From: Candidatus Nomurabacteria bacterium
GTDB lineage: Bacteria > Patescibacteriota > Minisyncoccia > Phycocordibacterales > UBA5272
Reading direction: 5' to 3'
Length of the DNA: 64,000 bases
Assembly (NCBI GenBank): GCA_037130925.1
Contig: JBAXSC010000001.1
Span: 253,877 to 317,876, forward strand
A program made the position numbers and the translations under genes. Positions 1,433 through 19,433 of the stretch are shown one piece after another (positions within the stretch are counted from its first letter, which is position 1; each line of letters begins with the position of its first letter). Below the pieces are notes generated by a model. The model was not told the DNA's origin and did not search any database. It saw nothing but the letters and a program-made list of their open reading frames with translations.

Positions 1433-2725
1433 ATGAAAAAATATTTCTTTATTTTGTTTCTTTTAATTTTACAAATATCTTTTATAAATAATTCTCTTGC
1501 TGCAAATTATTTACCAAAAACCTCTTTTTCTTATTCTGTATGGATACCATATTGGGCGAGATGGGGAGGAACGGATGAATTATTGGCAAGTTCTACAATT
1601 TCTGGAATAAGCTATAATTCAAATTTCAATTCCACAACTTCTGTATCAAATTTTTATGGTTCAACTTCTTCAAAAATGAATCTTGATAAACTTGATATAA
1701 TTTCTCCTTTTACTTTTAATGTTGACAGTACAGGGGCTTTTTTAGATAAGGGAAATTTAAATAATGATACTTTTAATAATCTAATTAAAATAGCACAAGC
1801 AAAAAAGATTAAAATTTATCCTACAGTTCTTTGGACAGACGCAAATCAAATGGATAAAGTTTTATCTGATAAAGATTTACAGCAAGCCATACTTACTGAT
1901 ATAGAATTCAATTTAAATAAGTATAATTTTGATGGAATAGATATAGATTTTGAAGGTAAAAAGGCTTCTACAAAAAATAATTTTTCTTCTTTATTAAAAT
2001 TAGTTTCTATAAATTTACATAAAAAAAGCAAAGGTTTAATCTGTACAATTGAAGCACGTACACCTTTAGTGGATACATATTCTAAGCTTACAAATCAAAC
2101 AAGAAATAATGTCGAATATGCAAATGATTATTCTGTAATTGGAAAATATTGTGACCAAGTGAGAATTATGTCTTATGATCAAATAGGAGATGACACATAT
2201 TTAAATAATATTAATAAAAATATTTATTATAGACCAGTATCAGACACAGCTTGGGTAGAAAAAGTTATTAAAAATACTATTAAATATGGAATTCCTGCAA
2301 ATAAACTAGTTTTAGGTGTTGCAACTTATGGATATAAATATGAAGTAGCCACAAATACAACTGCAACTACTACAAATAATAATAAACCAGATAAATATGG
2401 AAGTGTATTATTAAATAATCAATCAAATTATTCATACGGTAGAATAGGTAGTATGAATTATTCTTTTGCAAATGACTTAGCTAGAAGTTTAAATATAGTT
2501 CCGACAAGAAATAGTGGAGGCGAGTTAGAATTTTCATATTCTTCTACTACAGATATTAGTAATACAACACCTGGAGTTTTAAAAACTTATTATGTAGAAT
2601 ATTCTGATAGTAAAGCAATAGAGCAAAAAATAGCTTTAGCCAAGAAATATAAACTTGCAGGTATTTCCATATTTAAAATAGACGGAAATAATGACCATAA
2701 TATCTGGAATATAATAAAGAAGTAA
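1433..2725 (+). CDS. secreted glycoside hydrolase family 18 (chitinase / cell-wall hydrolase-like)
   Basis: FDGIDIDFEG matches the GH18 DxxDxDxE catalytic motif. A signal-peptide-like MKKYFFILFLLIL starts at the second Met (the ORF opens at 1415). Confidence 0.75.
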   Translation: MKKYFFILFLLILQISFINNSLAANYLPKTSFSYSVWIPYWARWGGTDELLASSTISGISYNSNFNSTTSVSNFYGSTSSKMNLDKLDIISPFTFNVDSTGAFLDKGNLNNDTFNNLIKIAQAKKIKIYPTVLWTDANQMDKVLSDKDLQQAILTDIEFNLNKYNFDGIDIDFEGKKASTKNNFSSLLKLVSINLHKKSKGLICTIEARTPLVDTYSKLTNQTRNNVEYANDYSVIGKYCDQVRIMSYDQIGDDTYLNNINKNIYYRPVSDTAWVEKVIKNTIKYGIPANKLVLGVATYGYKYEVATNTTATTTNNNKPDKYGSVLLNNQSNYSYGRIGSMNYSFANDLARSLNIVPTRNSGGELEFSYSSTTDISNTTPGVLKTYYVEYSDSKAIEQKIALAKKYKLAGISIFKIDGNNDHNIWNIIKK

Positions 2726-2836
2726 AAATCAATATTTTTCAAAATTTTCTATTTTTATCTAATTTTTAAAATATGCTTATTTTTCAATAATATTTTAGAG
2801 ATTAATAAAAAAATTTTGTTTTTTTGCTAAAAATAC

Positions 2837-2866
2837 TTGACAAAATATATTTATCTATGATAATAT
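2837..2866 (+). promoter_or_regulatory. sigma70-type promoter of the orphan RNA gene
   Basis: TTGACA at 2837-2842, an 18-nt spacer ending in TG (2858-2859), then TAATAT at 2861-2866; A/T tracts lie upstream. Confidence 0.6.
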
Positions 2867-2872
2867 ATATAA

Positions 2873-3352
2873 GTAATCAAAGATTGATTACAAAAGTACA
2901 TTAAATAAATAACTATTAATAAGTTGGATTAAGCACACATAAAGTGAAGCTCGTACCAACACGCTGCCAACGTAAGGAACTACTGTTAATGATTTTAATA
3001 AATTATTAGAATCATAATATTCCTTGGCAGTTTTAGGGCCACCGGCGAATCGCCATAACGCGCCCGAATAGAGCTGGTATGGGACGAAAAAAGTTCCTCA
3101 GCTTATTGTACCGTGTAGCTTTAAAAAAGATCTGCAATATTGCAATCACAAAAAAAGATCTTTAAAAAAAATTAAAGCACACAATCCGAGTATTTGGTGA
3201 TTAGAAATGATTCCATTTGTCCTAAGCAAATAGAAAGAATCTAATTTCAGCCAATAACTCATTCTCCGCAACGCATCGCGGAAAAATTTAAGTCTCACTT
3301 AGGCTTGAGACCCCCCCTCTACAAATGTAATCAAAGTAGGGGGGGATTTTTA
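2873..3352 (+). ncRNA. unclassified structured RNA (~480 nt)
   Basis: No ORF of 60 aa or more in any frame across 2726-3387. It is bounded by a consensus promoter and a strong terminator. The interior is clearly more GC-rich than the flanks, with at least 6 hairpins readable by eye (2873-2891, 2964-3030, 3036-3065, 3113-3182, 3265-3282, 3292-3311). Confidence 0.6.
3311..3352 (+). terminator. intrinsic terminator of the RNA gene
   Basis: CCCCCCC(tc)TAC at 3311-3322 pairs with GTAGGGGGGG at 3336-3345, followed by ATTTTTATTT. Confidence 0.8.
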
Positions 3353-3372
3353 TTTATTGTCATTTTTTCTTA

Positions 3373-3381
3373 TGATATAAT
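3373..3381 (+). promoter_or_regulatory. extended -10 promoter of scpA (predicted leaderless mRNA)
   Basis: TGaTATAAT at 3373-3381 lies only 6 nt before the ATG at 3388. Confidence 0.5.
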
Positions 3382-3387
3382 ATTTTC

Positions 3388-4152
3388 ATGTCACATGCAT
3401 TTAGCGTCAATCTAGAAAGATTTTCTGGACCATATTTTAAGCTTTTGGAGCTAATTGAAGAAAGAAAGCTTTCTATAAATGAATTTTCACTTTCCCAAAT
3501 CACAGACGAATATATTACTTATATAAAAGACCTTGAAAACAAAGGAGAAAAAGATATTGTAGACATATCTCAATTTATTTCTGTAGCATCAACTTTAATG
3601 CTTATAAAAGCAAAATCACTATTTCCAAATCTCGAATATACAGAAGAAGAAAAAGAAGCTGTTAATAATCTAGAAAAGAAACTAGAACTATACAAGATAA
3701 TGCTAGAAGCTTCTAAAAAAGTAAATAAAATTTATTCAAAAGAAGTTTTATCTTCTATATCAAAATTTGAAAATAATGAATCTGTTTTTGTTTGGGATAA
3801 CAGAGTAAATTCCACTTTTTTACACTCTGTTGCTATTGCATCACTTTTAAAAATTCCTAAAAAAGAAAAATTGAAACAAGTAGCCGTTAGACAAGTTTTA
3901 AAAATAGAAGATGTAATAGAAAAACTTTTAGAAAGAGTAAAAGTTTCTTTTTCTTTATCATTTAGAGATTTTTCTAAGTCAATGTCTAATGAAGTTGGGA
4001 GCTTTGAAGAGAAAAAATCAGCTTTTATAATTTCATTTTTAGCAATGTTAGAATTAATTAAAAATGGATTATTAAGTGCAGAGCAAACAGGGGACCATAA
4101 TGAAATAAATATTTCAAATATAGAAAATAAAGAATTAGAGACAGTAATCTAA
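3388..4152 (+). CDS. scpA: segregation and condensation protein A (kleisin)
   Basis: The N-terminal FSGPYFKLLELIEERKLSINEFSLSQITDEY pattern is typical of ScpA, and scpB follows directly. Confidence 0.75.
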   Translation: MSHAFSVNLERFSGPYFKLLELIEERKLSINEFSLSQITDEYITYIKDLENKGEKDIVDISQFISVASTLMLIKAKSLFPNLEYTEEEKEAVNNLEKKLELYKIMLEASKKVNKIYSKEVLSSISKFENNESVFVWDNRVNSTFLHSVAIASLLKIPKKEKLKQVAVRQVLKIEDVIEKLLERVKVSFSLSFRDFSKSMSNEVGSFEEKKSAFIISFLAMLELIKNGLLSAEQTGDHNEINISNIENKELETVI

Positions 4153-4172
4153 ATGTTATAATAATAAACAAT

Positions 4173-4748
4173 ATGGAAACACAAAATAATGGATCAAATA
4201 CAAATATTTTAGAACAAATTTCTGGCATATTATTTTTATATAATGATTCTATTACTATTTCTAAAATAGAAGAAATTCTAGCTAATGAAAATAAAATTAA
4301 AAAAGAAGATTTTGAAAATATATTTGAAGAATTAAATTTAAAATTAAGTAGTGTTGGATTAACTTTAATTAAAAAAGATAATAAAGATTTTGAAGAAATA
4401 GAATTAACTATTGCGGTTAAAAAAGATTTATCATATATTGCAAAGAAAATTAAAAAAGATGAATTAGAGGGAGATCTTACTCCTGCATCATTACAAGTTT
4501 TAACAATCTGTGCATATTTAGGCCATACAACAAAAAATGAAATATCTTTCATAAGAGGAATACAATCTGCCCAAAGTATCAGATCATTATCTTCTAGAGG
4601 ACTTCTTAAAAAAGAAGGAGAAAAATATTCTTTATCGATAGAAGCAATGCAAGAATTAGGAATAACAAAACTAGACGATTTACCAGAATACGAAAAAATA
4701 AAACAAGATTTTGAAGAAAGACTTAAAGAAGTATTAAAAGAAGAATAA
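4173..4748 (+). CDS. scpB: segregation and condensation protein B
   Basis: Adjacent to scpA, 191 aa, with winged-helix-like segments (ILFLYNDSITISKIEEIL; LQVLTICAYLGHTTKNEISFIRG). Confidence 0.7.
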   Translation: METQNNGSNTNILEQISGILFLYNDSITISKIEEILANENKIKKEDFENIFEELNLKLSSVGLTLIKKDNKDFEEIELTIAVKKDLSYIAKKIKKDELEGDLTPASLQVLTICAYLGHTTKNEISFIRGIQSAQSIRSLSSRGLLKKEGEKYSLSIEAMQELGITKLDDLPEYEKIKQDFEERLKEVLKEE

Positions 4749-19227: not shown

Positions 19228-19236
19228 TTATCCACA
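19228..19236 (+). promoter_or_regulatory. perfect DnaA-box 9-mer TTATCCACA
   Basis: Exact match to the consensus TTATCCACA; it is a single copy. Confidence 0.4.
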
Positions 19237-19267
19237 TCTGATCTTTTCATAGTATCAATACTCAGAC

Positions 19268-19305
19268 AAAACAAAACGCACCATATAAGGAGTGCGTTTT
19301 GTTTT
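19268..19305. terminator. bidirectional terminator
   Basis: AAAACAAAACGCAC / GTGCGTTTTGTTTT, a 14-bp stem with A/T runs on both sides. Confidence 0.75.
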
Positions 19306-19433
19306 AGTCACCCAAGACTAGTTTTTTGGGAGAGACAGGAGTGTGGGATTCTTCTATCTCCCCTGTTCATAATTATAGCAAGAGCAAAATCAGATGCAAT
19401 ATTTACAAAAAATAATTTTATTTCATTATTAAA

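Follow-up and report, generated by a model that had tools for sequence, protein, structure and literature searches.

What is encoded in the 662 bp that separate a GH18 gene from scpA in the genome of a Candidatus Nomurabacteria bacterium? We addressed this question in a 64,000-nucleotide stretch of contig JBAXSC010000001.1 (assembly GCA_037130925.1), referred to here as the window, in which the gap spans positions 2726-3387. An earlier note, made from the letters of the window alone, had placed in this gap an orphan gene for a multi-hairpin RNA of about 480 nt. To our knowledge, almost nothing is known about non-coding RNAs (ncRNAs) in Patescibacteria (the Candidate Phyla Radiation, CPR), whose genomes are otherwise extremely compact. 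As predicted from sequence, 2837-3355 is a probable independent plus-strand gene for a structured ncRNA of ~480 nt, belonging to no described family and confined to a very narrow Ca. Nomurabacteria lineage. We hold this reading with somewhat more confidence than doubt.

A predicted transcription unit upstream of scpA

The best promoter-like site within 2000-4500 is a sigma-70-type promoter on the plus strand at 2837-2866. TTGACA at 2837-2842 is followed either by GATAAT after a 16-nt spacer (11/12) or by TG-n-TAATAT after an 18-nt spacer (10/12), in line with the near-consensus promoter read at this site in the earlier note. Transcription from it would begin at about 2872-2873. At the other end lies an intrinsic terminator (3311-3355, plus strand), in which C3311-3317 pairs with G3339-3345, with ~3-4 further pairs and a 13-nt loop, and is followed by UUUUUAUUU; the T-tract after the C7/G7 stem (3311-3345) reads TTTTTATTT, and the predicted RNA would end near 3350. 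A standard terminator scan misses this hairpin because its loop exceeds 8 nt. In a scan without that limit it ranks about ninth among the T-tract hairpins of the window, at -18.3 kcal/mol. What had been taken for the strongest terminator in the window is its most G/C-rich one, but not its most stable.

The gap between GH18 and scpA has little coding capacity. Its longest open reading frame (ORF), of 50 aa, is on the minus strand, and the plus strand of 2726-3387 has no ORF of at least 30 aa wholly inside the gap, in agreement with the earlier observation that no ORF reaches 60 aa. The composition of the element also sets it apart, as had been remarked of its interior: in 100-nt windows its guanine-plus-cytosine (GC) content is 0.43-0.45, compared with 0.12-0.15 in the spacer upstream, and the peak of 0.55 per 80 nt, at 3036, tops all intergenic gaps of the window. 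The host is a 28% GC Patescibacteria genome, and the GC content of the window overall is 0.28.

The predicted RNA folds far more stably than its composition would require. Its folding energy is -139.9 kcal/mol, against -88.8 ± 6.1 kcal/mol in dinucleotide shuffles (z = -8.3), and the excess is found in each half when folded separately (z = -5.0 for 2872-3068; z = -6.8 for 3066-3355). The minus strand also scores (z = -6.4), as expected for any hairpin set. Read on the plus strand, seven pairs either are G-U or change to it, and on the minus strand they would be A-C mismatches; together with the promoter and the T-tract, they point to the plus strand as the one transcribed.

In the minimum free energy (MFE) structure the RNA is a row of local hairpins with no helix joining its 5′ and 3′ ends. 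The helices drawn by eye in the earlier note (2873-2891, 2964-3030, 3036-3065, 3113-3182, 3265-3282 and 3292-3311) all recur in both the MFE and the centroid structures. H1 (GUAAUCAA/UUGAUUAC; 2873-2891), present in both, stands at the 5′ end and is followed by an A/U-rich unpaired linker (2892-2922). In H2 (2923-2960), GUUGG/CCAAC closes an internal loop and an inner hairpin, AGC-CAC...GUG-GCU. H3 (2964-3030), CUGCCAA...AAGGAA / UUCCUUGGCAG, is a long hairpin whose distal arm is A/U-rich, and H4 (3036-3065) is a GC-rich hairpin in which GGGC...GCCC surrounds GGCG-AAU-CGCC. The remainder, a genome-specific 3′ domain (3066-3310), consists of Ha (3071-3104), Hb (3113-3182, with the tip GCAAUAUUGC), Hc (3188-3260), Hd (3265-3282) and He (3292-3311), again in both MFE and centroid structures. 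All these features are on the plus strand.

The 5′ and 3′ domains compared with the closest relative

A search with ScpA found a single close relative, L031 (an ENA contig), whose ScpA is 96% identical. A metagenome scan with a 33-base pattern from the 5′ domain returned only L046 (a JGI contig), which is identical to L031 and represents an independent assembly of this relative; the intergenic sequences agree at every one of the 448 nt compared. In BLAST, the window matches L031 from within GH18 up to 3041 (85.7% identity) and again from 3364 onward (92%). With MAFFT, a weak alignment continues across the GC-rich hairpin as far as about 3068, and by eye the right-hand homology resumes at ~3343-3349 (GGATT..TTATTTATTRTCA). 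The two genomes therefore share the promoter and the first ~200 nt, with hairpins H1-H4 (2873-3065), of which 2868-3041 aligns. Both promoter hexamers are identical in L031 and L046 to those of the window, and 2837-2872 is 87% identical. From ~3042-3069 to 3345 the window and L031 RNAs are unrelated in sequence, with 280 nt here versus 180 nt in L031, where the RNA ends in a terminator of its own (~L031:897-925). Nothing similar to the 3′ domain (3066-3310) was found in L031/L046, in the 48 loci examined, elsewhere in the window, or among phages, plasmids and viral contigs. As a probable independent non-coding unit outside known families the orphan gene of the earlier note stands, but it is not conserved whole, since only the promoter and the first ~200 nt are common to one relative.

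Beyond its RNA terminator, L031 carries an orphan 73-aa, strongly hydrophobic ORF (L031 947-1168, equivalent to L046 597-818 on the minus strand), apparently with its own TGATATTAT -10 element. This ORF has no homologue among 5.8 billion proteins and no counterpart in the window by tblastn.

The shared domain keeps its pairing. When the window MFE is mapped onto L031, a comparison of two sequences in which the structure is derived from one of them, 43 of the 51 comparable pairs are still standard pairs, with four double compensatory and five one-sided compatible changes. Nulls with independent substitutions retain 34.5 ± 3.3 (P = 0.006) or 38.4 ± 1.4 (P = 0.005) pairs, and the four double compensatory changes compare with 1.0-1.6 expected under these nulls (P = 0.007-0.07). 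With the 3′ partners displaced by 1-3 columns, 32-48% of cells are paired and 0-1 double changes appear, as against 92.5% and 4 for the real structure. In H1, 7/8 pairs are kept, one of them through an A-U to G-U change, and in H2 all 11 pairs are kept, with one compensatory change from A-U to G-C. In H3, three double changes are compensatory and three further changes, each on one side, remain compatible with pairing; its basal helix, read by eye, still forms in L031 if the register shifts by 1 nt, with two of its pairs then being G-U. H4 is the last element with an L031 counterpart, GGGGC-CAAUGCCGU-GCCCC. The least conserved stretch of the 5′ domain is the unpaired linker at 2892-2922, which includes a 7-nt indel.

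Four-fold degenerate sites in scpA, scpB and the 3′ end of GH18 are 69-81% identical between the window and L031; in the 5′ domain, identity is 74-78% for paired and 55% for unpaired columns. The 5′-domain sequence drifts at about a neutral rate. Since pairing is maintained in the stems and conservation is lowest in the unpaired segments, the role of the RNA probably depends on its shape, for example to bind or titrate a protein, and not on a base-pairing seed.

These features are consistent with a simple model. The RNA would be transcribed from its strong promoter, and the 5′ hairpin and the G/C-rich terminator hairpin would stabilise the transcript. The 5′ domain of H1-H4 (2873-3065) would act in trans by virtue of its shape on a putative partner, probably a protein that it binds or titrates. 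This four-hairpin domain would be the part retained by selection, its shape held by compensatory changes while its sequence drifts near-neutrally. The 3′ domain (3066-3345; five hairpins plus terminator), exchanged for unrelated sequence in the close relative, would be replaceable and would mainly provide termination and stability.

Long-range contacts proposed in the earlier note do not form part of this model. The repeated words on which they were built are present, AAGCACACA at 2931 and 3175 and GTAATCAAAG at 2873 and 3327, and in both cases the second copy falls inside the genome-specific 3′ domain. There is a mild excess of long-range direct 9-mers (3 versus 0.3 expected, P about 0.02), and the long-range complementary 9-mer on which the kissing would depend is no more than chance would give (P = 0.17). 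L031 has neither the second word copies nor an equivalent of the kissing or alternative pairings, which leaves these pairings without comparative support. We therefore dropped both the kissing of the 5′ hairpin with the terminator loop and the alternative pairing of AAGCACACA. A 17-nt direct repeat (82%) at 2866 and 3320 is of doubtful significance.

Distribution, known RNA families and rival explanations

Fifteen further relatives have a readable junction between the upstream gene and scpA, with ScpA 67-87% identical. In 12 of the 15 the upstream gene ends just 18-47 bp before scpA (in L001, L007 and L048, GH18 abuts scpA directly), and the L004 junction has 88 bp with only a terminator. The two other lineages have, at the same junction, an unrelated unit built of promoter, hairpins and terminator. 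In L036 (2631-3000; the same in L038 and L040) it is a 370-bp insert with TTGACA-17-TATTAT, a hairpin-rich predicted RNA of 264 nt (z = -5.4) and a terminator; in L006 (2805-3000) it is a ~130-nt unit of similar build (z = -6.9). Neither has an Rfam match, has sequence in common with the window element or is matched by its covariance model. scpA itself has an extended -10, TG-A-TATAAT (3373-3381, plus strand), outside the RNA and ending 7 nt before the ATG at 3388. This TGnTATAAT, ~7 nt ahead of the ATG, is kept in all relatives, with or without the element. Because it is kept whether or not the slot is filled, scpA would be transcribed from its own, apparently leaderless, promoter, which supports the earlier argument that the element is not simply a scpA leader.

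Wider searches gave no further homologue. A scan of GTDB genomes with a ScpA alignment yielded 30 loci, none with the element; pattern scans of viral contigs gave chance matches or nothing, and BLASTN against phages and plasmids gave no match. Searched with a covariance model built on the 5′ domain, 274 kb of related sequence gave back only the model's training sequences. Protein searches with ScpA and GH18, followed by contig look-ups, found no further close relative, the next being 87% (ScpA) and 77% (GH18) identical and both lacking the element. The spurious ORFs of the element, sought in a protein collection as a handle on homologous DNA, are not on record there.

The absence of recognised RNA families that the earlier note had reported from inspection was borne out by model searches. 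At gathering scores, Rfam 15 gave no family of any kind in the whole 64-kb window, and at E ≤ 10 with relaxed filters the region 2700-3450 gave noise only (LhrC at E = 0.1 on the minus-strand terminator, and two others with E above 6). The same models gave terminator-like noise on related sequence, at gathering scores on 20 loci and at E ≤ 10 on L031, L035 and L036 (L20 leader, E = 0.27). RNase P RNA is not indicated by a CR-I (GGAAAGUCC) or CR-V motif within 2-3 mismatches, by an Rfam match or by a terminal 5′-3′ helix. For transfer-messenger RNA (tmRNA) there is no GGUUCGAnUCC-like T-loop within 2 mismatches, and ARAGORN and Rfam are empty. No GGAAGCAGCC-like motif of helix 8 of the signal recognition particle (SRP) RNA was found, and the SRP and 6S models are unmatched at E ≤ 10; a row of local hairpins is also not the rod with a central bubble of 6S RNA. 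A riboswitch, T-box or ribosomal-protein leader finds no Rfam match and no T-box sequence, and scpA downstream has its own conserved promoter. OLE, GOLLD, ROOL, HEARO, raiA and group I and group II introns, whose models are all part of Rfam 15, were absent at gathering scores from the 64 kb and at E ≤ 10 from 2700-3450. A CsrA sponge would be expected to stand out in its motifs, but the element has 5 GGA against 5.3 ± 2.0 in shuffles, and its single ANGGA lies within a stem. Against an element of the miniature inverted-repeat transposable (MITE) or repetitive extragenic palindromic (REP) kind, neither the 64-kb window nor 274 kb of related loci holds another copy, in a search that reached about a tenth of the genome, and the only inverted repeats at the ends are AT-rich matches expected by chance. 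A full-text literature search found no paper on the 2837-3355 RNA or on CPR ncRNAs of such a type.

Three further candidates were rejected. A retron or guide RNA finds no reverse transcriptase or nuclease gene among the annotated genes, which cover ~28 kb of the window; mobility genes are likewise absent from this set. An oriC or parS at the element is disfavoured by the GC-skew switch and perfect DnaA box found instead at ~19 kb. A tRNA gene split by a group I intron should leave tRNA halves and match an intron model, and neither was found. ARAGORN finds no tRNA or tmRNA in the 64 kb, and neither ARAGORN nor Rfam at gathering scores detects a tRNA gene anywhere in the window. A 2026 paper (PMC13011429) describes tRNA genes overlooked in Patescibacteria owing to group I introns.

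Among the closest known systems are orphan, lineage-specific bacterial small RNA (sRNA) and ncRNA genes, with which the element shares a sigma-70-type promoter of its own, a hairpin at the 5′ end, beads-on-a-string hairpins, a Rho-independent terminator and the lack of an ORF; like them, it also has a narrow range among lineages and a sequence that turns over fast. It differs from typical sRNAs in being several times longer (~480 nt), in having half of its length swapped in the nearest relative, and in that its unpaired regions, the would-be seed sites, are the least conserved. Protein-titrating RNAs, namely sponges of the CsrB/RsmZ type and the 6S and Ms1 RNAs, both of which bind RNA polymerase, are of similar size, with many hairpins, strong promoters and terminators and poor sequence conservation, and they function through shape or repeated hairpins, the mode suggested here; unlike CsrB and 6S, the window RNA lacks GGA enrichment (5 versus 5.3), a 6S-type rod or end-closing helix, and an Rfam match. 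OLE, GOLLD, ROOL, HEARO and raiA are also large, strongly structured and GC-enriched intergenic RNAs. These are conserved over many genera, usually with associated genes, whereas the window RNA matches none of their models, occurs in just two near-identical lineages and comes with no such gene. A constant 5′ RNA part followed by unrelated sequence, with homology resuming just downstream, recalls the 3′ ends of tRNA and tmRNA genes that are replaced by integrating elements. The pieces replaced here are only ~280 and ~400 nt, with no integrase, no tRNA-like end and no att-like repeat apart from the doubtful 17-nt, 82% repeat (2866, 3320).

The element combines what is generally looked for in an independent structured ncRNA gene: promoter and terminator, no coding potential, excess folding and compensatory pairs, the last in two sequences and in 2873-3065 only. 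Several observations weigh against reading it in this way. It is absent from the junction between the upstream gene and scpA in all 15 other relatives, which would make it either dispensable and young or located elsewhere in those genomes. Covariation, which the earlier note had listed among its checks, is seen to some extent in the 5′ domain against L031. The 3′ 280 nt have no homologue in any sequence set searched, and no partner gene co-occurs with the element. Its primary sequence changes at much the same pace as synonymous sites, as a weakly selected or neutral insert would, and the support for structural constraint on the 5′ domain, coming from two sequences, appears real but thin.

The main rival explanation takes up these points: the element would be a functionless foreign or selfish DNA insert in a permissive slot upstream of scpA, with a promoter and terminator that it carried or acquired, in the course of being replaced or lost. 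We consider this unlikely, though it has much in its favour, as the slot is empty (18-47 bp) in most relatives, is filled by unrelated units of 264 nt (z = -5.4) in L036/L038/L040 and of ~130 nt (z = -6.9) in L006, and in L031 holds a different 3′ half and the orphan 73-aa ORF, while the GC content is far above the host's and divergence is about neutral. It does not readily account for the GC-rich stems H2-H4, which have been retained by compensatory changes since the L031 split with no decay toward 28% GC, or for promoter hexamers identical in both lineages. Terminal inverted repeats and convincing target duplications are also lacking, with no extra copy in the 64 kb or in 274 kb of related loci, no phage, plasmid or viral-contig match and no mobility gene nearby. 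A cis module for scpAB is improbable to a greater degree. It could be an insulator whose terminator blocks read-through both from GH18 and from the element's own promoter, or a regulated leader with an attenuator terminator; the terminator does end ~35 nt before the scpA ATG, and terminator-bearing units occupy the same position in L004, L006 and L036. Such a role is unlikely because scpA has its own conserved promoter and the junctions of most relatives are terminator-free: the extended, leaderless-type -10 is present in every relative, including those whose 18-47 bp junctions have no terminator. In L031 a separate small ORF intervenes between the RNA terminator and scpA, and neither a riboswitch or leader family nor a conserved alternative antiterminator pairing was found.

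Still less probable are readings that would assign the element a familiar product. That short ORFs exist, and that leaderless translation seems common in this genome, might suggest a small protein or a dual-function RNA, encoded as a 28-aa basic peptide at 3079-3165 (plus strand) or in the 50-aa ORF at 3146-3298 (minus strand). We regard this as very doubtful, as no such ORF is conserved in L031 or found in a 15-billion-protein collection, the ATG at 3079 lies inside a stem with no Shine-Dalgarno sequence or promoter of its own, and the 73-aa ORF of L031 has no counterpart here. The least probable of all is a very divergent RNase P RNA, tmRNA, SRP RNA or 6S RNA, missed by standard models in an AT-rich lineage. 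Its size and GC enrichment are like those of stable RNAs in AT-rich genomes, and all four of these RNAs are undetected in the 64-kb window. Yet no family matches at E ≤ 10 with relaxed filters, and CR-I/CR-V, T-loop and SRP helix-8 motifs are missing even with 2-3 mismatches allowed. These four RNAs all pair their 5′ with their 3′ ends, which in the window RNA do not pair with each other. Replacement of the 3′ half at 96% ScpA identity, and absence of the unit from the syntenic site of the other relatives, are also unlike essential RNAs.

The reading of 2837-3355 as an ncRNA gene is thus the one that we prefer. It makes a genuine and well-delimited candidate for a new family, ordinary in kind and narrow in distribution, and its sole unusual trait is the modular architecture, constant in the 5′ part and swapped in the 3′ part. 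This architecture invites a broader speculation, which we think improbable: that the junction upstream of scpAB in the Paceibacteria/Nomurabacteria clade is a slot for fast-evolving, shape-dependent RNAs, with a constant 5′ scaffold and interchangeable 3′ modules under diversifying selection. If this were so, the element would be a modular RNA serving, for example, strain-specific immunity, competition or the titration of a variable partner, and not a one-off orphan sRNA.

Genomic context and significance

The element lies in a row of cell-envelope and cell-division genes, all on the plus strand, that encode a TPR protein (87-1325), GH18 (1415-2725; Pfam PF00704), ScpA (3388-4152; PF02616), ScpB, a D-Ala-D-Ala carboxypeptidase, an MraY-like transferase, FtsW/RodA and MreB. 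The spacer between the GH18 stop codon and the RNA promoter (2726-2836, plus strand) is AT-rich (12-15% GC), is 78% identical to L031 over 2726-2800 and 86% over 2801-2836, and possibly acts like an UP element for this promoter. In some relatives the gene row includes a class I aminoacyl-tRNA synthetase (aaRS) gene of the TyrRS/TrpRS type (PF00579; L036 163-1179, L047 725-1741, L048 1947-2957, L032 1943-2959). The order is TPR-aaRS-GH18 in L047 and L048 and aaRS-GH18 in L036; in L032, which lacks GH18 here, the aaRS gene abuts scpA. The window has no aaRS gene between TPR and GH18, which are separated by only 89 bp (1326-1414).

An extended -10 (TGnTATAAT) ~7 nt before the start codon is found in the window at 3373-3390 and at position 3001 of loci L001-L011, L023 and L032. 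As read from gap sequences, several other genes of the window share this arrangement, which suggests that leaderless mRNAs are common in this clade.

Two observations concern the region near 19 kb. A second sRNA-like unit lies on the minus strand at 19264-19399, with TTGCAT (19399-19394), a 16-nt spacer and TATAAT (19377-19372). Its predicted RNA, ~100 nt long, would form a GC-rich hairpin and end in a long terminator (19305-19267); the folding z-score is -5.5, and Rfam offers no match. In the same region the plus-strand GC skew switches, at ~19 kb, from positive (2-18 kb) to negative (20-64 kb), and gene orientation flips there too. The only perfect DnaA box of the window, TTATCCACA at 19228-19236, is in the gap just after dnaX. 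The skew switch and the DnaA box may mark a replication-related landmark or may reflect an effect of gene orientation.

The practical importance of the element is limited, as it is found in two near-identical lineages of uncultivated organisms. For a compact genome, 660 bp of non-coding insert equipped with a consensus promoter, a strong terminator and ten stable hairpins is nonetheless costly. If expressed, it would be a lineage-specific candidate for an RNA that regulates or binds protein. Its turnover is fast: half of the RNA has been exchanged at 96% ScpA identity, and in sister lineages the slot is empty or holds unrelated RNA-like units. Turnover of this kind bears on the origin and loss of RNA genes in reduced genomes.

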